From Nanobdellota archaeon (lineage in GTDB: Archaea; Nanobdellota; Nanobdellia; Woesearchaeales; JBHPFW01), in the NCBI GenBank assembly GCA_042571645.1, contig JBHPFW010000002.1, forward strand, positions 3,456 to 67,455: a DNA stretch of 64,000 nucleotides, in the 5' to 3' direction. This document shows, in pieces, positions 4,506 to 51,586 of the stretch. The position numbers and the translations under genes are program-made. The notes below the pieces were generated by a model. The model saw nothing but the letters and a program-made list of their open reading frames with translations, had not been told where the DNA came from and did no database searches. Position 1 is the stretch's first letter. Every line of letters begins with the position of its first letter.

Positions 4506-7178
4506 TTATCCAAAGTATAGTGGCTTTTCTTTCTTGAATTCTTCCCCACGAGCAGATTTCATGGTATTTTTAAGATTTTTATATGCATCTTCGATATCTT
4601 TTGTTACAGAAGGCCCCACTTCTTTTAATGCAGATTCAAAATCTCCCATTGTGACTTGTTTTGCAGACATATCTTTTCTAAGTGCATTGATTGCAGCTTC
4701 TCTGCATACTGCCTCTATATCTGCGCCAACATATCCTTCTGTTTTTTTAGCTAATTCATCAACAGAAACATCTTTAATAGGCATTTCACCTATGTGAACA
4801 TTAAATACTTCTTTTCTTGTTTTTTCATCAGGAATTCCAATAGGAATTAATCTGTCAAATCTTCCTGGGCGGAGTAAAGCAGTATCTATTATGTCTGGTC
4901 TGTTAGTTGCAGCTATAACAACAACATCCTGCATCTCTTCTAAGCCGTCTATTTCTGTGAGCATCTGGTTAACTACTCTTTCTGTGACTTTGCTGTCAGA
5001 AGTTGCTCCACGTCTTGGTGCAATAGAATCAATTTCATCAAAGAATACAATACTAGGAGAAACTTGTCTTGCTTTTTCAAATATTTTTCTTACAGCTTTT
5101 TCTGATTCACCAACCCATTTGCTCAACATTTCCGGGCCTTTAACAAGAATGAAATTAGCTTGTGATTCATTTGCTACTGCTTTAGCTAGTAGTGTTTTTC
5201 CTGTTCCTGGCGGCCCATAAAGTAATATGCCTTTTGGCGGTTTTACACCAAGTCTTGAGAATGCTTCTGGATTTTTCAATGGCCATTCAACAGCTTCTTT
5301 AAGATTTTGCTTAGCATCTTCTAAGCCTCCAACATCATCCCAGCTTAGTTTTGGAATCTCAACAAGCACTTCTCTCATTGCAGAAGGCCTAACAACCTTC
5401 AATGCATCAAAAAAATCTTTTTTTGCGATAGTGAGTTTCTCAAGCATCTCTCTTGATATTGATTCTTCTGATTCCAATTTTAATTCAGGCAATACTCTTC
5501 TCAACACGATCATTGCTGCTTCTTTTGCTAAACTGGAAAGATCTGCTCCTACAAAACCATAAGTGACCTCAGAGATTTCTTTTAGTATTATTTCCTTTAC
5601 AATTGTTGAGATTTTATCGCTAATGTTCTTTTCATCAACAAGCTCCTTTAATTTATCCTTGACTGGGTAATTAAGTTCTCCCCCATTAAGTTCAACTTGA
5701 CCTTCTTCTTTTATTATGGAGTTCGATCTTATTGTGTTTGTTATGTCTTCTGATATCTTTTCAATGCATTTGCTCAAGAAATCTTGTTTGCTGCTATTAA
5801 CACCTTTTGGTAACAAGGCCTCAAGATAAGTAGTGATTTCTTTTTGTGTTCCTTCAAGATGGTTATCTTGAGGTTTGTGTTTTTTTAGAACAAGCTCAAT
5901 CAGTTTTGTACTATCAACTTGCTGAAGTAAATCAGAAATTTGTTTTTTTATTTCATCTTCTTTTAACCGCGGATCTATGGATGAAGGGTCCCTGTTTATA
6001 GGCATATTTCTCGTATGAATTTTTAGTATCTTTAGTCTGCCTTCTGTTCTTGGAACGCCAATATCAATTTCTCTGTCAAATCTTCCAGGCCGTCTTAATG
6101 CTGGATCTAAAAGATTTGGTACATTTGATGCTGCAATAACTACAACTTTTCCTCTGCTTTTTAATCCATCCATCAATGCAAGTAATTGCGCAACAACTCT
6201 TCTTTCAACTTCTCCTTTAACTTCTTCTCTTTTGATTGCAATAGCATCTATTTCATCGATGAATATTATTGAAGGTGCATTCTTTTCAGCATCCTCAAAA
6301 ATCTTTCTTAAATTCTCTTCAGACTGACCATAATATTTACTCATTATTTCAGGACCATTAATCACAACAAAATTAGAGTTAGTTTCAGTTGCAACTGCTT
6401 TAGCAAGAAGAGTTTTTCCAGTACCTGGCGGACCATGCAGTAATACTCCTTTTGGTGCGTCTATTCCTAATCTTTCAAATATCTCAGGATGTTTTAAAGG
6501 CAGTTCAACCATTTCTCTGACCTTTTTAATTTCCTCATCTAACCCGCCAATATCTTCATAGCTGACATCGGGAAGAGCAGATTCCTCTTTTACTTCAGTT
6601 GCTTCTGGTTTGAAAATAACTTCTGTAACTTCTGTAACTATAACTGATTGTTTAGGCTCAGCATCAACTACTATAAACTTCATCTCACCAAACCCGAAGT
6701 TCATTATGTTGTCATCTAACATATTAAATACATCATCAAAAAAGGGATTTCCGCTAGTTGTGGTTCTTCTTCTCTTTGAACCACCTAAACTCACTATATC
6801 TCCTTTAATTAAAGCTCTGCCTAATAAGCCTTGTTTGAAAAGAGATGGAGGTGCTTTGATAAAAACTCCTTTTTTAGCAGGTGCTATTGTGATTTTCTTT
6901 GCTTCCTTAACTTCTGCCCTTTTTATCTTTACTATCTCACCAATACCTGTTTTAGCATTTCTTCTTATAACTCCATCCATCCTTATTATGTTAAGACCTA
7001 TATCTCCTGGATATGCTCTGTCTACCATTGCTACAGTAGGTCTCTCGCCAGTAATCTCAACAATGTCTCCCGGCCTTACATCTATGTTCTGCATAATAGA
7101 AGTATCTATCCTTACAATTCCTTTGTTGACATCATCCTGTATTGCTTCAGCAACTTTAAGTGAGATTTCTTTTGTCAT
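4506..7178 (-). CDS. cdc48: CDC48/VCP family AAA+ ATPase with a ~130-aa insertion in D1; likely start MTKEISL at 7178
   Basis: N domain plus two AAA modules (GPPGTGKT twice, DEIDAI/DEIDSI, RPGRFDR). Confidence 0.96.
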
Positions 7179-7278
7179 TTTTTCAATATGATCTTCTCTG
7201 CCTGATTTATATACATACAATATAAGCTATTAAAAATATTTCGGTAGTTTAAGCCAATAAAACAGAATTTGCAATGAT

Positions 7279-7692
7279 TTATTGTTTCTTAGGGCTTATT
7301 TTTGGCATTGGTACAGGGGGAGGCAATCCTAGCTTATCGCTCATGATTAATGACTGTATATTACACCTTACAAGGATTGCATTAAGCAAGGGCAGAGAAT
7401 CTGCTTTGTTAATATTCTTGTTTTTCTTCCAATGATCTAATATTTTTTTGGCATCCTCAGGCTTTTCTAAAGCCAAAATATTGCCTTTTATCTCAATTTC
7501 GCCTATTTTAGGCTCATAAATTGATTTATAAGTGAAATCATACTTTATTCCTTCGTCTTTTGTGTTACCAAAGCTTAATTTAGCTTTTGAAGCATCAGTT
7601 ATTATCACATTATTATTTATCTTGATATTCCCTCTTGAAGGAGTTTTCTTTTCTGCTGTTATCTTAGTTATATTGACACCCAATATTGCCAT
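7279..7692 (-). CDS. Conserved archaeal hypothetical protein, possibly SecB-like fold
   Basis: 137-aa ORF with host-like composition; fold guess from the beta-rich pattern only. Confidence 0.5.
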   Translation of the reverse strand: MAILGVNITKITAEKKTPSRGNIKINNNVIITDASKAKLSFGNTKDEGIKYDFTYKSIYEPKIGEIEIKGNILALEKPEDAKKILDHWKKNKNINKADSLPLLNAILVRCNIQSLIMSDKLGLPPPVPMPKISPKKQ

Positions 7693-7777: not shown

Positions 7778-9004
7778 TTAAGTGTCCCTTGATTTTACAG
7801 CAGTAATCCTTGGCTTTTCTAGATCATACAAATCTGTGCTAAAGACATAAGCACCTATATTTAGAAATATTAGTGATTGGTGTGTTTTTATTTCTGGCAG
7901 AAAAACTTTATCTCGAAATATATCTATCGGATCTAATGTGCATCCTCTTATATGATGGCTTTTTTTCTCTTTATTCTCTTCAGCCATTATTTTTGTTGGA
8001 ATAACCGGAAGTTCTATACCTGCCAGCATAGTATCAACACTAGAGATATATGTTGAAGTATTTAATATTATTATCTTATTCTCTTCATTGCCTTTTTTTT
8101 CTACAAGAACTTTTGTTAACAACACAAAAGCATCTGCTGCAATGCTTCTGCCGGGTTCAATTATTACTGTGGTTTCGGGGAAGTCTCTTTTTATTTGTGT
8201 TAATTCTGTTTCCCAAGCAGAATAAATTTCTTTAATAGACGGCGCTTCTTTAATATAAGTAGAAGGGAATCCTCCGCCGAGATCAAGATATTGAAGATCA
8301 ATATCTCTTTTTTTTAATTCAACTAGAAAGACACTTATCTCTTCCAGATTCTCCTGCCAGCTATTAATGTCTATGTTTTGTGTTCTGAGGTGATTGTGAA
8401 TTCCTTTTAGGTTAATGTGCGGCATCCATTCAAGCTCTTCCAAAGCAGTTTTGAACTCATCAAGATTCAGGCCTAAATCAATTGAAGTTCCATAAGCAGA
8501 ATTTTTTGGCACAATACTTGTTTTTACTCTAAGCAAAACATTTGCCTTTGTTTTTACTTTTTCTGCACACCTATTTAGAAGTTTAAGTTGCTCTAATGAT
8601 TCAATAACAATAAAACCAATTTTTTCCTCTGCAACCTTTGTTGCTTCTTTTTCAGACATTGCAGGATTATTGTATATTACATCACCATATTCTTTGAATG
8701 CGATTATTTTTGCAAGCTCGTTTAATGAGCTAACAACAAATGTGCATTTATTTTTTGAGATAATATCCAATACAGATTTTGTTCTGTTGGTCTTAACAGG
8801 ATAAGCTATAATTGTCTCTTCCCCGAACTGGGTTCTGAATTTGTCTATATTCTGCTTTAGCTTGTTTGGGCTGAAAATAAATAATGGCTCATCAATTGTT
8901 TTGCCTAACTCATGCAGATTTAAGCTGTCAAATTCAAGCTCATTATGGCTGTTAAATGCCAATAAGGACTCTGGATTTTCTATTATATTAAGTGCTGATT
9001 CCAT
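7778..9004 (-). CDS. PLP-dependent fold-type III decarboxylase (Orn/DAP/Arg decarboxylase family); likely start MESALN at 9004
   Basis: YPVKTN (PLP lysine), LDLGGGF, IEPGRSI, GAY. The ORF-track start at 9070 lies inside a repeat element. Confidence 0.85.
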   Translation of the reverse strand: MESALNIIENPESLLAFNSHNELEFDSLNLHELGKTIDEPLFIFSPNKLKQNIDKFRTQFGEETIIAYPVKTNRTKSVLDIISKNKCTFVVSSLNELAKIIAFKEYGDVIYNNPAMSEKEATKVAEEKIGFIVIESLEQLKLLNRCAEKVKTKANVLLRVKTSIVPKNSAYGTSIDLGLNLDEFKTALEELEWMPHINLKGIHNHLRTQNIDINSWQENLEEISVFLVELKKRDIDLQYLDLGGGFPSTYIKEAPSIKEIYSAWETELTQIKRDFPETTVIIEPGRSIAADAFVLLTKVLVEKKGNEENKIIILNTSTYISSVDTMLAGIELPVIPTKIMAEENKEKKSHHIRGCTLDPIDIFRDKVFLPEIKTHQSLIFLNIGAYVFSTDLYDLEKPRITAVKSRDT

Positions 9005-9060
9005 AGGTTTAGGGGGTTCTAAGGCAGTATATAAAGGTTTGGGGGTTTTAATAAAAGGAA

Positions 9061-9169
9061 TTAAAGCCACCAGTGCCTAGAGTGCCTTTGTTTTTAGTCT
9101 GGTTTTGCATCCCCCTCATGATTGCGAGATGCGACAACACTTGCTTGGCACTCGCCCTGGTGGCTTTAA
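9061..9169 (+). repeat. Dispersed structured intergenic element, family A, copy 1
   Basis: 13-bp terminal inverted repeat TTAAAGCCACCAG/CTGGTGGCTTTAA; core GCCTAGAGTGC...CATGATTGCGAGATGC...TTGGCACTCGCCCTGG shared with five other loci. Confidence 0.92.
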
Positions 9170-9213: not shown

Positions 9214-9438
9214 ATGCCAAAAAAGAACCCTACAAAAAGAAAGAAAAAAGCAGCCAAGAAAAAGATTGCTAAACTGAAGAAAATTATTAAGAAAAGAATA
9301 TCTAAAAAGGAAAAAATCCGCCAAAAGAAATTAAAAAAGAAATTCATAATATGGCTGGTTGTGGTTAAGGGCATTATACTAATAGCTGTACTTATTCTGT
9401 TTTATCTGTTTGTGAGAAAATTGATGGGCCTTCTTTGA
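9214..9438 (+). CDS. Small lysine-rich protein with a C-terminal transmembrane helix
   Basis: Highly basic N-terminus followed by one hydrophobic segment; TATA-like TTATATAAA upstream. Confidence 0.6.
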   Translation: MPKKNPTKRKKKAAKKKIAKLKKIIKKRISKKEKIRQKKLKKKFIIWLVVVKGIILIAVLILFYLFVRKLMGLL

Positions 9439-9444
9439 TCAGAT

Positions 9445-10368
9445 CTATTTCTCAAGCATCACTGCAGCAAGCAAAGGAAAAACAATTGTAACATCACTAT
9501 GAACTGTTACTGCTTTTGCATTTTCATTAACTTTTCCCCAGGATTTTGCTTCAGAAGTTGTAGCTCCACTCAAAGAACCTGTGTAAGGACTTGAAGTTTT
9601 TACATAAATACAATAATCAAATCCTTCTCTCATTAAATTTGCAATAATCGCATGATGTTTTGGAGTAGCACCACCCAGTATAATTCCAGCAGTTTTTTCT
9701 GCATTAGCTGCTTGGTCGATAATATTCTTGAAATCTTTTACAATGCTTACTTCAAAATCTTGGTGTTTTTGCTGGAAAAACATTAATTGCATTCCAAATG
9801 CTCCATCTGTTAATGCTGGACAGAAAATTGGCACATTATTTTTTGCAGCCTGCCATAATATGGAGTTAGAGTCTTCTTTCATGTTTTCTCCAACAAATTT
9901 TATCAGCTCAGATGGGAGCCAGGTCTTTTTTTGTGCATATGCTTTTTCTAATATCTTAGGCATTTCATCTTCTAGGTAAGTATATCTGTCATTTGGTACA
10001 TAAACATTTCCCATTCTATTAATTCCTTTCTTACCTAATTCCGTATCTTTTTCTTCATCAAAACTTCCCTGAAGATATGGTTTGTTGGATTTAATAAAAT
10101 CTTCATCAATTGTACCAGAACTTGTGCTGATAACATTAACCAGCCCTTCTTTAATGAGCTGTGCAATCAACCCTCTTAATCCAGAAGCTGCAATATTTGA
10201 AGTAAAACTCAGAAAAACTTTAGCTTTAGCTTTCTTCATTGCTCTAATTACATCTGCTGCTCGGCCTATTTGTTGTGCTTGAAACCCAGAGTCTTTAAGC
10301 TTAGCCAATAGGTCTTTCACAGTAATATTCTCATCCAGATCAAAGTCTATAATTGGTTTATCTGTCAT
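9445..10368 (-). CDS. dys: Deoxyhypusine synthase
   Basis: FTSNIAASGLR, GINRMGNVYVPN, PALTDG, GGATPKHH, GSLSGA, EAKSWGK (catalytic Lys retained). Confidence 0.93.
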   Translation of the reverse strand: MTDKPIIDFDLDENITVKDLLAKLKDSGFQAQQIGRAADVIRAMKKAKAKVFLSFTSNIAASGLRGLIAQLIKEGLVNVISTSSGTIDEDFIKSNKPYLQGSFDEEKDTELGKKGINRMGNVYVPNDRYTYLEDEMPKILEKAYAQKKTWLPSELIKFVGENMKEDSNSILWQAAKNNVPIFCPALTDGAFGMQLMFFQQKHQDFEVSIVKDFKNIIDQAANAEKTAGIILGGATPKHHAIIANLMREGFDYCIYVKTSSPYTGSLSGATTSEAKSWGKVNENAKAVTVHSDVTIVFPLLAAVMLEK

Positions 10369-10408
10369 ATTTAAGGGGAATGAGAATGGGTTTTTAAAAG
10401 TAATGGTA

Positions 10409-11296
10409 TTATTCCCTTAGATAAGCAGGCCAATTTTCTTTATCAAAGCCGTGCTGTGCAAGAAATGCGTATGCTAGTCTATTCAGCCCTAAGCCAGTAC
10501 ATCCACTCCAGAGATTCTGATCAGGACCAACATTAAATGCTTTTACCAGTCTATCATATTCTATGCCGCAACCTGCAATTTCTCTCCATTCTTCTTTATG
10601 GGGAAGCCAAACCTCAATATCATGGATCGGGATTTCATCAGGCTTTTGTGCTTTTTTGTATTTATCGAGGGTTTCAGGAAATCCACAGCATGGTTCTCCT
10701 ACTGTAGTCCTCCAATTTATTTCAAGATTTGTGAGATAAGATAAAACATATTTTTCTACAGTTCTTCTAGTTTCTCTTACTTGGTCAGGAGTACCGATAT
10801 AAATAAGTTCTAATCTTCGAAATTCTTTTGCTTTAAAGAAGCTATCTAACTCTTCTTCTTTTTCGTTTCTAAAAGTGGGTTCTATTCCTGGTTCATAAAC
10901 CAGAAGCGGTAAGTAATTTAGAGTCTGACCTCGAATAGCTTCATATAAAGGCGCACATTGAACAGGATCAAGTATGCGAGTAGTACTTCCTCGAGTAGCC
11001 TCAAATAAAAGTTCAGGAGTGTATTTTATACAACCAAAATCTGCCAGTGTTTGAGGTAATAGGAGTCTAGAAAAAACCATTTCTCCAAATTCCATTGGAT
11101 AAACAACTTCTTTTTCAAATAATTCTCTTAATTTAGTAAAAATACCAGTTATTTCTTGTCGATAGAGAAATACCCCTGGCGAAACTTCCTTAAGCCACTC
11201 TTTCTCCTCTGCAATCTTACCAACATCTCCAGAGAATGAATTAGAAAAATTTGGTCCTTCTTTCAATACAGTTCCAAATTTAGAAAAATCTGCCAT
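10409..11296 (-). CDS. Stand-alone catalytic domain of a methanogen-type (atypical) SerRS homolog, aa:carrier-protein-ligase-like
   Basis: LDPVQCAPLY, FRNE, EFRRLE, WSGCTGLGLNRLAYAFLAQHGFDKENWP match atypical SerRS motifs; 295 aa with no N-terminal tRNA-binding domain. Confidence 0.82.
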   Translation of the reverse strand: MADFSKFGTVLKEGPNFSNSFSGDVGKIAEEKEWLKEVSPGVFLYRQEITGIFTKLRELFEKEVVYPMEFGEMVFSRLLLPQTLADFGCIKYTPELLFEATRGSTTRILDPVQCAPLYEAIRGQTLNYLPLLVYEPGIEPTFRNEKEEELDSFFKAKEFRRLELIYIGTPDQVRETRRTVEKYVLSYLTNLEINWRTTVGEPCCGFPETLDKYKKAQKPDEIPIHDIEVWLPHKEEWREIAGCGIEYDRLVKAFNVGPDQNLWSGCTGLGLNRLAYAFLAQHGFDKENWPAYLRE

Positions 11297-11375
11297 TTTC
11301 AGACTTTTAGGATTGGTTTGATTTATTTAAACCTTTTCCATAAACTATTTAAAGCTTATAAAAGCCCTTTAATTC

Positions 11376-12140
11376 ATGAACCTTTTAATTGACGCACATG
11401 CACATCTGGATGATAAAGCATTTGAATCTGATTTAGACCAAGTCATAGATAATGCCAAAGCTGCTGGAGTTAAAGCTATTATCTGTTGTGGCTTGAATGC
11501 TGAGTCAAACAAAAAGATTCTGGAACTCTCTAAACAGTATGATCTTATTAAGCCGGCTTTTGGTGTTTATCCAATTGATACAAAAGAATTGACACAAGAG
11601 CAAGAAAAAGAATTCTTTGATTTTGTTTTAGAAAACAAACCTATAGCAATTGGTGAAGTTGGATTGGATTATCATTGGGAAAAAGATCAAGCTAACAAAG
11701 AAAAACAAAAAGAGTTTTTCAAAAAAGCAATTGAATTTGCAGAGAAAAATAATCTGCCAATGTCTATTCATTCAAGAAATGCAGAAGAAGATACAATTCA
11801 AATCCTGGAAAGTGCTAATCTGAAAAATATTAAAAACAAAATAATAATGCACTGTTTTGGTGGTAATAGTTCTCAAACAAAGAAAGTCATTGAGAATGGC
11901 TGGAGTTTCTCTGTCCCAACAAATATTGTAAGAAGCCAGCATTTTCAGAATATTGTCAAGCAAGCTCCAATAACACAAATTCTCACAGAAACAGACTGTC
12001 CTTATTTAGCTCCAGAAAAAGATCAGCGTAATGAGCCAGCTTTTGTTGCTAAGTCAATCAAGAAAATTGCGGAAATTAAAGGCATGACAAAAGAAGACGC
12101 TACAAACAACATTTTCATGAATTATCAGAGGATTTTCTAG
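11376..12140 (+). CDS. tatD: TatD family hydrolase
   Basis: DAHAHL, IGEVGLD, IHSRNA, MHCF, ETDCPYL. Confidence 0.95.
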   Translation: MNLLIDAHAHLDDKAFESDLDQVIDNAKAAGVKAIICCGLNAESNKKILELSKQYDLIKPAFGVYPIDTKELTQEQEKEFFDFVLENKPIAIGEVGLDYHWEKDQANKEKQKEFFKKAIEFAEKNNLPMSIHSRNAEEDTIQILESANLKNIKNKIIMHCFGGNSSQTKKVIENGWSFSVPTNIVRSQHFQNIVKQAPITQILTETDCPYLAPEKDQRNEPAFVAKSIKKIAEIKGMTKEDATNNIFMNYQRIF

Positions 12141-29362: not shown

Positions 29363-30643
29363 TTATTCTTTCTTCCCAATAACCTTATTGCCGTTCATAT
29401 AAGGCAATAGAACATCTGGGATATTAATGCTTCCGTCTTCATTCTGGAAGTTCTCTAATATAGCAACTAATGCACGGCCTGTTGCAACACAGGTGCTATT
29501 TAAGGTGTGAACAACTTTGTTGCCTTCTGGTGTTCTGAACCTAGTCTTCAGACGTCTTGCTTGGTAATCTGTACAATTACTACAACTAACAACTTCTCTA
29601 TAAGTTTGTTGTACTGGCATCCATACTTCAATATCATATTTTTTAGCAGCTACTGATCCAATATCTCCTGTGCAGATATTAACAACTCTAAATGGCAGTC
29701 CTAAGCTTTCAAAAAACTCAACAGCATTTTTCAAAAGCTCTTCATGAAATTGCCAGCTTTCTTCTGGTTTGCAAATAATTATCTGTTCAATTTTGTTGAA
29801 TTGATGAACTCTGAATATTCCTTTAGTATCTTTGCCATGACTGCCAGCTTCTTTTCTAAAGCAAGCACTCAAACCAACTTCTTTAACAGGCAAATTATCC
29901 TGTTCAATTATTTCATCCATATACATTGCAGTCAAAGGATGTTCACTAGTTGCAATAAGATATAAATCTTCATCATCAATTTTATACATCACGTCTTCGA
30001 AATCTCCTAAATCAGTAACACCTTCGTAAGCTTTGCGGTTCATCATAAAAGGAGGATACACTAACAAATATCCGCGTTTTGTCATAAAGTCAACAGCATA
30101 CTTTTGCATTGCTAATTCAAGTTCTGCTATTTTTCCTTTTAAGAAATAATGTCTACTGCCTGCAATCTTTGCTGCACGCTCAAAATCTGCCCAGTCATTT
30201 TCTTCTAGAATATCAACATGACTTTTTGGTGTGAATGTAAATGTTGGTTTTTCTCCAACTTCTCTTGCAAGAGTATTGCCTTCTTCATCAGCTCCTTCTG
30301 GAACAGACTCATGGAGAATGTTTGGCAATCTCATCAAGTATTGATCTATTTTTTCTTTAATATTAGTTTGTTCTGTTTCAATTTCTTCAATTTTTTTTGG
30401 AATTTCTGCTGCTTGTTTTAGTTTATCTGCTGCATCTTTGCCTTCTTTTTTTAATGCAGCAATTTCTTTGCTGATGTCATTCCTTTGTTTTCGGATTTGT
30501 TCAGTTTCTGTTTTAAGATCCCGCCATTTTTTATCAAGTTCGATAACTTCGTCTAACCATTTTAATTTCTCTTTATCTTTTCTTTTTTCGAGATCTTTTT
30601 TTACAATTTCTGAGTTTTCTCTTATTAGTCTTATATCAAGCAT
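29363..30643 (-). CDS. serS: Serine--tRNA ligase (canonical type)
   Basis: MLDIRLIR, N-terminal coiled coil, ATSEHP, FRKEAG, GIFRVHQF, SCSNCTDYQARR, HTLNST. Confidence 0.97.
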   Translation of the reverse strand: MLDIRLIRENSEIVKKDLEKRKDKEKLKWLDEVIELDKKWRDLKTETEQIRKQRNDISKEIAALKKEGKDAADKLKQAAEIPKKIEEIETEQTNIKEKIDQYLMRLPNILHESVPEGADEEGNTLAREVGEKPTFTFTPKSHVDILEENDWADFERAAKIAGSRHYFLKGKIAELELAMQKYAVDFMTKRGYLLVYPPFMMNRKAYEGVTDLGDFEDVMYKIDDEDLYLIATSEHPLTAMYMDEIIEQDNLPVKEVGLSACFRKEAGSHGKDTKGIFRVHQFNKIEQIIICKPEESWQFHEELLKNAVEFFESLGLPFRVVNICTGDIGSVAAKKYDIEVWMPVQQTYREVVSCSNCTDYQARRLKTRFRTPEGNKVVHTLNSTCVATGRALVAILENFQNEDGSINIPDVLLPYMNGNKVIGKKE

Positions 30644-51187: not shown

Positions 51188-51586
51188 ATGGGAGAAACAA
51201 AGCTAGCTAGTGTGGGATCATTACAAAAAGGCTCATATGTTGTTATTGATGGAGCTGCTTGTAAAGTTACAGATACTAAGACTTCAAGACCTGGAAAACA
51301 TGGTCATGCAAAAGTCAATATGATGGCTGTAGGATTATTGGATGACAAAAAAAGAAACATCATAATTCCAGGACATGATAATATTGAAGTGCCAATTGTT
51401 GAAAAGAAAAATGCTCAAGTATTAAACATTTCAGGCAAAACAGCAAATGTCATGGATAATGAATCATATGAAACATTTGACATGGACATTCCAGATGAAC
51501 TAAAAGACCAAGTTGTTGAAGGAGCAACAGTAGTCTACTGGGTTGTTTTGGATTCAAAAGTTATGAAACAGGTAAAAACAGAATAA
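51188..51586 (+). CDS. eif5a: Translation factor aIF5A
   Basis: SRPGKHGHAK hypusine loop. Confidence 0.97.
   Translation: MGETKLASVGSLQKGSYVVIDGAACKVTDTKTSRPGKHGHAKVNMMAVGLLDDKKRNIIIPGHDNIEVPIVEKKNAQVLNISGKTANVMDNESYETFDMDIPDELKDQVVEGATVVYWVVLDSKVMKQVKTE

Follow-up and report, generated by a model that had tools for sequence, protein, structure and literature searches.

Immediately upstream of the deoxyhypusine synthase gene (dys) of a Nanobdellota archaeon is a gene coding a seryl-tRNA synthetase (SerRS)-like catalytic core without a tRNA-binding domain, and the question raised by this locus is what such an enzyme would aminoacylate. The window, that is the whole stretch of DNA analysed, consists of 64,000 nucleotides of contig JBHPFW010000002.1 (assembly GCA_042571645.1). 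The gene, referred to below as the ligase, is located at 10409..11296 on the minus strand, encodes 295 amino acids and, as initially annotated, lies 40 nt upstream of dys on the same strand. We give an even chance to the ligase being a zinc-dependent amino-acid-adenylating enzyme that transfers the amino acid without tRNA or a carrier, the acceptor being probably a primary amine. New chemistry has arisen repeatedly from truncated aminoacyl-tRNA synthetase (aaRS) paralogs, as in AsnA, MshC, EpmA and the ligases joining an amino acid to a carrier protein (aa:CP ligases). The observation of a truncated SerRS-like core beside dys was confirmed and the identity of dys (9445..10368, minus strand, 307 aa) was genuine, with 336 bits to PF01916 and 308.6 bits to TIGR00321 (cutoff 304.25). 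The source assembly comprised 1.49 Mb in 55 contigs and was 82% complete, a limit carried by all of the genome-wide negative results below.

Fold and catalytic residues of the ligase

The ligase matched PF00587 in Pfam (E=5e-10, over the cutoff) and its top NCBIfam models were those of methanogen-type SerRS (SerRS2), NF002120 (142.7 bits, cutoff 611) and TIGR00415 (100.4 bits, cutoff 489.55), with the alignments restricted to the C-terminal two thirds of the models (model positions ~310-502). The top sequence matches in the PDB were the SerRS of Methanopyrus kandleri (3w3s) and Methanosarcina barkeri (2cim). The PDB alignment ran from approximately residue 179 of 527 in 3w3s to the C-terminus, and the N-terminal tRNA-binding domain is therefore absent from the ligase. 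An AlphaFold2 model built with a 70-sequence family alignment had a predicted local distance difference test score (pLDDT) of 96.4 and a predicted TM-score (pTM) of 0.93. Foldseek comparison with the PDB placed SerRS2 at the top (query TM-score, TMq, 0.87 and 0.84) followed by bacterial SerRS and then the aa:CP ligase Bll0957 (TMq 0.76). The NCBIfam, PDB and fold matches agree on an atypical SerRS catalytic core lacking the tRNA-binding domain, which was the first claim made for this gene.

SerRS2 (M. barkeri 2cim/2cj9 and M. kandleri 3w3s) was closest to the ligase in both sequence and fold, and the two share a Cys-Glu-Cys zinc site, motifs 2 and 3 and a C-terminal QHGFD..WP tail. Relative to SerRS2, the ligase is without the N-terminal tRNA-binding domain of ~170 aa (PF18490) and, from motif 1 to the DPVQC strand, is shortened by a deletion of approximately 35 residues. 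Residues were mapped in the 2cim chain numbering as given by HMMER, which is 20 ahead of the published numbering. By alignment the zinc ligands of the ligase are C114 (DPVQC), E163 (FRRLE) and C266 (SGCTG), the published SerRS2 ligands being reportedly C306, E355 and C461 (Bilokapic et al. 2006). Of the three candidate ligand motifs named initially, PVQC and SGCTG stood, while the WREI glutamate (E239) aligned with another conserved class II Glu and gave way to E163 in RRLE. Motif 2 (R143-x-E145) and motif 3 (G268-x-G270-x-x-R273) were intact, and C114, R143, E145, E163, C266, G268, G270 and R273 were invariant in 28-70 family members, including the 29 aligned members of the clade described below.

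Two further positions distinguished the ligase and its relatives from SerRS2. C203 was present in 29/29 clade members, replacing the aromatic W396 of the SerRS2 serine-ordering loop, and G242 in all but one of the 29, replacing Asn/Ser at N435, while full-length SerRS2 carried F/W/V at the W396 position and S/N/A at the N435 position. These replacements suggest that the amino-acid pocket has probably been remodelled and that serine is therefore an unlikely substrate.

By the reading favoured here, an enzyme derived from methanogen-type SerRS would hold the amino acid via its amino group on the Cys-Glu-Cys zinc site and form aminoacyl-AMP with ATP through the motif 2 Arg/Glu and the motif 3 Arg. 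The acyl group would then be passed to a nucleophile other than tRNA or a phosphopantetheinyl carrier protein. An amide would result if, as is most likely, this nucleophile is the primary amine of a small molecule or glycan. A candidate for the amino acid would be a beta-amino acid such as beta-alanine. The proposed logic would be that of MshC, AsnA and EpmA by analogy. AsnA, an asparagine synthetase derived from AspRS, is likewise a stand-alone class II core that transfers an aminoacyl-adenylate to an amine nucleophile without tRNA, but it belongs to the class IIb lineage, has no zinc site and uses ammonia as the acceptor.

The same residues bear on whether the protein is an enzyme at all. 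A non-catalytic remnant, a regulatory pseudo-enzyme (HisZ- or SLIMP-like) or a decaying horizontally acquired gene would fit its orphan status, the cluster having a single member from a single contig, and the lack of a conserved partner in the source genome. We regard this as extremely unlikely given that the open reading frame (ORF) is intact with a GC content typical of the genome, that all catalytic residues have been kept and that the predicted fold is very confident.

A distinct clade of short SerRS2-like proteins

A word-based search found a single relative of the ligase. When 1.84 billion cluster representatives were searched exhaustively with HMMER, 46 related clusters had E<=1e-30. 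A profile search added approximately 80 more proteins, including genes of Streptomyces, Nocardia and Plantactinospora annotated only as 'hypothetical' or 'aminoacyl-tRNA ligase-related'. In a 77-row tree, stand-alone proteins of ~300-340 aa, here named clade A, were split from the other short groups as well as from full-length SerRS2 with 96% support by the Shimodaira-Hasegawa-like approximate likelihood ratio test (SH-aLRT), and the SH-aLRT support was 93% in a second tree. The window protein was located inside clade A and carried its whole signature, consisting of DPVQC, RxE, GxGC, G242, SGCxGxGxxR and a length of ~300 aa. Together with its closest archaeal homolog (P0008; G, L, C and P numbers are our handles for genomes, loci, contigs and proteins) it branched deeply and without resolution at the clade base in the second tree. 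The identity between these two proteins was 39-40%, and nothing closer was found in the collections searched.

Phylogeny therefore places the ligase in a clade apart from SerRS2, and its sampled members also failed the aa:CP ligase model NF005479; ten representatives (seven from clade A and three from the other short groups) scored 25-54 bits or had no match. On these sequence features clade A, as defined in the present analysis, is distinct from the aa:CP ligases and carries its own pocket signature. Literature searches on the names of aa:CP ligases returned nothing on clade A, and the functions of SerRS paralogs listed in a review were only SLIMP and the aa:CP ligases (PMC9437257). Clade A adds a further SerRS2-derived group to the truncated aaRS paralogs, one set apart by this signature and by the lack of a carrier protein.

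Absence of a tRNA-binding or carrier protein partner

A split SerRS2, in which a separate gene supplies the missing tRNA-binding domain, was rejected, since PF18490 had no match at E<=1 anywhere in the assembly. A canonical bacterial-type SerRS gene (serS) is located at 29363..30643 on the minus strand and is complete as first described, with both the Seryl_tRNA_N coiled-coil tRNA-binding arm and the core domain. No tRNA genes were identified in the 64-kb window by ARAGORN. Class II aaRS-like enzymes of natural-product pathways have been described as aminoacyl-tRNA-dependent (PMC12945691), and the part of a class II enzyme by which the acceptor end is normally contacted, its core, is kept in the ligase. 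The ligase could accordingly be imagined to use Ser-tRNA or another aminoacyl-tRNA as acyl donor in the manner of AcmF, or to charge a tRNA or minihelix without a binding domain of its own. We hold this to be very unlikely as the zinc site and everything required for adenylation are conserved, although a pure transferase could do without them, while a tRNA-binding domain was found neither in cis nor in trans, a canonical SerRS is present and the window is without a tRNA gene.

Carrier proteins were likewise not found. As had been claimed for the immediate neighbourhood, no carrier-protein gene adjoins the ligase, and the PP-binding carrier domain PF00550 had no match at E<=1 elsewhere in the genome (11/14 control genomes were positive). 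PF00550 was also absent among the Pfam-annotated genes of those clade loci for which annotation was returned. The aa:CP ligases Bll0957 and Atu2573 are also truncated SerRS2-like cores that are zinc-dependent and tRNA-independent (Mocibob et al. 2010, 2013). They differ from the ligase in having a DPFF loop in the place of GxGC, and clade A genes had as neighbours not carrier proteins but PanD, radical SAM enzymes or enzymes of sugar-amine formation. The ligase reached 44 bits against NF005479, the cutoff of which is 357, and with the cutoff missed and no PP-binding protein present an identity as aa:CP ligase was rejected.

There is little probability that the ligase belongs to this group after all and loads a divergent or unassembled carrier, CoA or another thiol. 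Such a function would draw on the truncated architecture and zinc triad shared with Bll0957, on the incompleteness of the genome and on the aa:CP ligases reportedly acylating free thiols as well. Set against it, besides the NF005479 score and the missing PF00550 matches, is the phylogenetic position of the ligase, which is nearer to SerRS2 than to the aa:CP ligases.

With an intact enzyme core, no tRNA-binding domain, a canonical SerRS elsewhere and no carrier protein, an acceptor that is neither tRNA nor carrier protein is therefore the best reading. That part of the initial proposal was upheld, while the specific coupling to dys and aIF5A was not, as the linkage proved not to be conserved (see below).

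Genomic contexts of clade A genes

Approximately 35 clade A loci were compared after annotation of the neighbouring genes with seed proteins, Pfam and NCBIfam, and four recurring patterns were seen. The first, the Streptomyces type (type 1), was found in at least ten loci and featured a DegT aminotransferase, an NTP transferase, a GHMP kinase, a GFO/MocA oxidoreductase, a SIS isomerase and an epimerase, followed by a UDP-sugar dehydrogenase, a GmhB-like HAD phosphatase, the ligase, a glycosyltransferase (GT), in some cases an aldo-keto reductase (AKR), and an ABC-2 exporter. Such a gene order suggests a cluster for a heptose/amino-uronic-acid glycopolymer.

In ten loci from Streptomyces and metagenome contigs (L023, L029-L036 and L041), heptose-activation genes and WbpA/B/E-like enzymes accompanied the ligase, the GT and the ABC-2 exporter, and this gene set resembles that for the N-glycyl-heptosamine of septacidin. 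SepH N-glycylates the septacidin heptosamine at the 4'-amine (PMC9978623). Given the similar gene set SepH might be a characterised relative of the clade.

Type 2 clusters included an AKR, a GT4, a NodU-type carbamoyltransferase, the ligase, a PIG-L deacetylase, a DegT aminotransferase, a GT, a Fem-like Acetyltransf_6 protein and a methyltransferase, and an AKR-ligase fusion protein (P0004) was also identified. The combination of a GT4, a PIG-L deacetylase and an aaRS-derived ligase follows the logic of MshA, MshB and MshC. MshC, the Cys:GlcN-Ins ligase of mycothiol synthesis, is an aaRS-derived, zinc-containing and tRNA-independent ligase that acts with MshA (GT4) and MshB (PIG-L), and in type 2 clusters the PIG-L enzyme would likewise expose a sugar amine. 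The type 2 GT4 scored under both the BshA cutoff (117.9 versus 273.7) and the MshA cutoff (79.7 versus 462.5), and the likeness to MshC is therefore one of analogy and not of membership. It is a works-like analogy to the bacterial clusters only; MshC is a class I (CysRS) derivative and the archaeal ligase gene has no GT4 or PIG-L neighbours.

The DPANN type (L053-L061, and L021 on contig C6 of G163) consisted of a divergent TrmB-family regulator, the ligase and a radical SAM enzyme of ~230 aa overlapping the ligase stop codon. This enzyme was close to TIGR04100 and to the TatD-associated family TIGR04038 (106-114 bits, cutoff 129.7), and a bacterial radical SAM-ligase fusion of 625 aa (P0017) was found. 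The TatD gene beside the ligase in the window was considered as a link to this pattern and rejected; no other ligase locus carried TatD, the source genome was without a TIGR04038-like radical SAM enzyme and TatD is an ancestral neighbour of the dys-decarboxylase pair. A role in anti-phage defence was also rejected as there was no PADLOC match.

On contig C5 of the source genome (L120 3629-8325), an operon coding a NodU-type carbamoyltransferase, a 384-aa protein and a member of the arginase/agmatinase family runs divergently from the gene of a TrmB regulator. A second carbamoyltransferase is located on contig C4 of this genome, and the same family directly adjoins the ligase in bacterial type 2 clusters.

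The closest archaeal homolog, P0008, provided a further context. Its gene lies 9 nt downstream of a true panD on contig C3 of GCA_016185435.1 (G424; L007 231-1510), and the Gly-Ser self-cleavage site and the R/T/Y residues of this PanD were intact. This genome had no CoaBC (PF04127) and two dys paralogs, both on other contigs than the ligase.

The proposal of an amide-forming amino acid:amine ligase is based mainly on the neighbours in types 1 and 2, which would make free sugar amines. The amine-generating enzymes beside relatives of the ligase were PIG-L deacetylase, DegT aminotransferases and PanD. Enzymes adding amino acids to many glycans are, to our knowledge, largely unidentified, and clade A is therefore a concrete candidate, with its bacterial members located in conserved amino-sugar/heptose clusters where a sugar-amine aminoacylating enzyme would be expected. 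The pairings in DPANN genomes with small radical SAM enzymes, PanD or dys are entry points into the metabolism of organisms with few assignable pathways.

Several points weigh against the reading favoured here. The archaeal ligase is a long orphan branch with at most 40% identity to anything among approximately 15 billion proteins, so the transfer of function from bacterial contexts is weak, and the family contexts are themselves heterogeneous, ranging from sugar clusters to small radical SAM enzymes, PanD and dys. With the genome only 82% complete, the search may have overlooked a partner or carrier protein. The pocket was interpreted from an alignment, and the acceptor might instead be a hydroxyl, giving an ester, or a thiol.

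Possible association with beta-amino-acid metabolism

A beta-amino-acid theme was suggestive in the DPANN genomes. In the source genome PanD is encoded at C9:32058-32390 (together with its neighbours, L119 6059-7561), on a different contig from the ligase, beside a gene of the HDAC/acetylpolyamine-amidohydrolase family. By tblastn, no PanB, pantoate kinase or phosphopantothenate synthetase (PPS) was detected in this genome and of CoaBC only a 35-residue fragment, and its beta-alanine therefore has no detectable CoA pathway to enter. No aminomutase was found in the source genome. In another genome of the order (G346, contig C78; L022 6914-8954), a KamA-family 2,3-aminomutase (TIGR00238, 246 bits, cutoff 199) preceded, by only 4 nt, a mini class II core of 239 aa, with MetRS coming next. 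This core is distantly related to clade A and has lost the first zinc Cys, and the pair may be described as EpmB/EpmA-like by analogy.

As a special case of the amine ligase, beta-alanine from PanD would be activated and ligated to a small amine or acid, giving a soluble beta-alanyl compound such as an osmolyte, a cofactor-like molecule or a polyamine conjugate with no role in translation. We consider this specific version unlikely, if worth stating. The operon of P0008 with a bona fide panD, the presence of PanD in the source genome without the remaining CoA genes and a pocket that appears enlarged relative to SerRS2 in the alignment are consistent with it. The PanD-ligase operon was, however, seen in one organism only and P0008 was unique, with the ligase found in 0/80 relatives of G424. 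PanD was present in eight of the 61 genomes of the order and four of these had neither CoaBC nor the ligase, and panD and the ligase do not share a contig in the source genome. A triangle of PanD, dys and ligase was rejected, as the PanD located 1 kb from dys in G037 is within a CoA operon (PanB, CoaBC, pantoate kinase, PPS).

Linkage of the ligase to dys

The initial proposal of a link to dys and aIF5A was examined through the phyletic distribution and gene order of the two genes. Within the 61 order genomes dys was present in 60 and the ligase in one, and the one further ligase match was a full-length SerRS2. Short ligase homologs were found in two of 400 other sampled genomes of the phylum, neither of them beside dys, and neither dys nor aIF5A was found near the ligase among the ~35 other family loci. 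At the dys loci of 29 relatives a pyridoxal phosphate (PLP)-dependent decarboxylase was adjacent in 26 and TatD in three, while the ligase was adjacent in none. What dys keeps as its functional partner across the relatives is the decarboxylase and not the ligase.

The stop and start codons of dys and the decarboxylase often overlapped in order genomes (L127-L155). In two of these, G018 (L155) and G010 (L149), CDC48 and p137 were followed in the opposite orientation by dys, the decarboxylase and TatD, with dys and the decarboxylase overlapping and no ligase in the block. The window includes the same genes, a CDC48/VCP-type AAA ATPase at the end of the block (4506..7220, minus strand), p137, coding a 137-aa protein (7279..7692, minus strand), a decarboxylase of the ornithine/diaminopimelate/arginine type (7778..9070, minus strand), dys and, divergent from the ligase, a TatD-family hydrolase (11376..12140, plus strand) which in relatives comes directly after dys-decarboxylase. 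The dys-decarboxylase segment is inverted, and the pair that is contiguous in relatives is split by a 374-nt gap holding an antisense ORF for a 74-aa Lys-rich membrane protein with a C-terminal hydrophobic segment (9214..9438, plus strand). The position of the ligase corresponds to the inversion breakpoint between dys and TatD. We read the ligase as a lineage-specific accessory gene inserted at this breakpoint, and its adjacency to dys may therefore be incidental. The p137 protein had no Pfam or NCBIfam match, and its gene was conserved beside CDC48 and dys in no fewer than two other order genomes (34-37% identity).

The 40-nt spacer from the ligase stop to the dys start (10369..10408, minus strand), read directly, contained TTTTAAAAA, a TATA-like element lying 25-33 nt upstream of the dys ATG, with no Shine-Dalgarno motif and no run of five or more T, whereas relatives have GGAGG/AGGTG leaders. 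From these sequence elements, independent leaderless transcription of dys appears as plausible as transcription in an operon. The ligase and TatD are transcribed away from each other, and the region separating them (11297..11375) contained the TATA-like boxes TTTTATAA and TTTAAATA upstream of the ligase ATG.

A conserved dys linkage was rejected on the phyletic counts and on the syntenic block without the ligase. In a functional coupling, the ligase would be to archaea what EpmA, with elongation factor P (EF-P) as its target, is to bacteria, and would aminoacylate either the polyamine donor or the terminal amine of deoxyhypusine on aIF5A; we judge such a coupling decidedly unlikely. The shared strand, the 40-nt distance without a strong terminator and the amine acceptors implied by the family contexts, which fit the chemistry, would all agree with it, and aIF5A is encoded in the window as first noted (51188..51586, plus strand), with the hypusine-site motif PGKHGHAK and at 40 kb from the ligase. 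Its likelihood is lowered by the rarity of the ligase relative to dys, by the absence of dys and aIF5A from the other ligase loci, including that of G424 with its two dys genes on other contigs, by the location at an inversion breakpoint in a block which relatives keep without the ligase, and by a TATA-like box that may give dys a transcript of its own.

In two DPANN genomes an enzyme that forms a beta-amino acid, PanD in G424 or the KamA-family aminomutase in G346, is encoded beside a truncated SerRS-like core in an arrangement recalling EpmB/EpmA. An extension of the hypusine pathway could be imagined on this pattern, in which DPANN archaea repeatedly recruit such cores with these enzymes and an amino acid, perhaps PanD-derived beta-alanine, is placed on deoxyhypusine or a polyamine; we see only a small chance of this being the case. 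With the dys adjacency being a lineage-specific insertion, the useful result for the original claim is therefore a negative one, and a route of aIF5A modification is not to be presumed.

Proposed linkage of the ligase to EF-P

EpmA (PoxA), which is paired with EpmB, is a truncated class II aaRS derived from LysRS and joins beta-lysine to an EF-P amine. The likeness to the ligase lies in the pairs of PanD or KamA with SerRS-like cores in DPANN genomes and in the position of the window ligase beside the gene of an aIF5A-modifying enzyme. It differs in that the ligase core is SerRS-type, with all best matches SerRS-type and no LysRS or EpmA model among the matches, in the lack of a detected aminomutase in the source genome and in the linkage of the ligase to dys, aIF5A or EF-P not being conserved.

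EF-P genes were located in or near the ligase cluster in two bacterial type 2 loci, which could be taken in favour of the coupling of the ligase to dys discussed above. In L026 (11426-11986, minus strand) EF-P is co-directional with and adjoins DegT and a GT, and in L038 (20126-20686, minus strand) it is 9 kb from the ligase cluster. Both carry the loop PGN[W/L]RA with Asn at the position of the modified Lys34 of E. coli. This loop, present in 117/121 best homologs, marks a large EF-P subfamily with the motif PGNWRAM and with sources named as KSB1, Hydrogenedentes and Spirochaetes. Three long contigs encoding EF-P of this type had no ligase and no glycan cluster (3/3), and on one of them EF-P was 83% identical with the same upstream gene shared. 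Two Streptomyces genomes and one alphaproteobacterial metagenome-assembled genome carrying the ligase had an EF-P with an ordinary PGKG loop located away from the ligase contig. The EF-P link was rejected as the adjacency was present in two loci only and was not seen from the EF-P side, and this adjacency is probably incidental. These results also count against the coupling to dys.

Some DPANN genomes employ a full-length methanogen-type SerRS2, and in two such genomes of the same class as the source genome (G359 and G404; L017 and L018) its gene was located tail-to-tail with aIF5A at a distance of ~10-80 nt, an arrangement that is probably due to chance.

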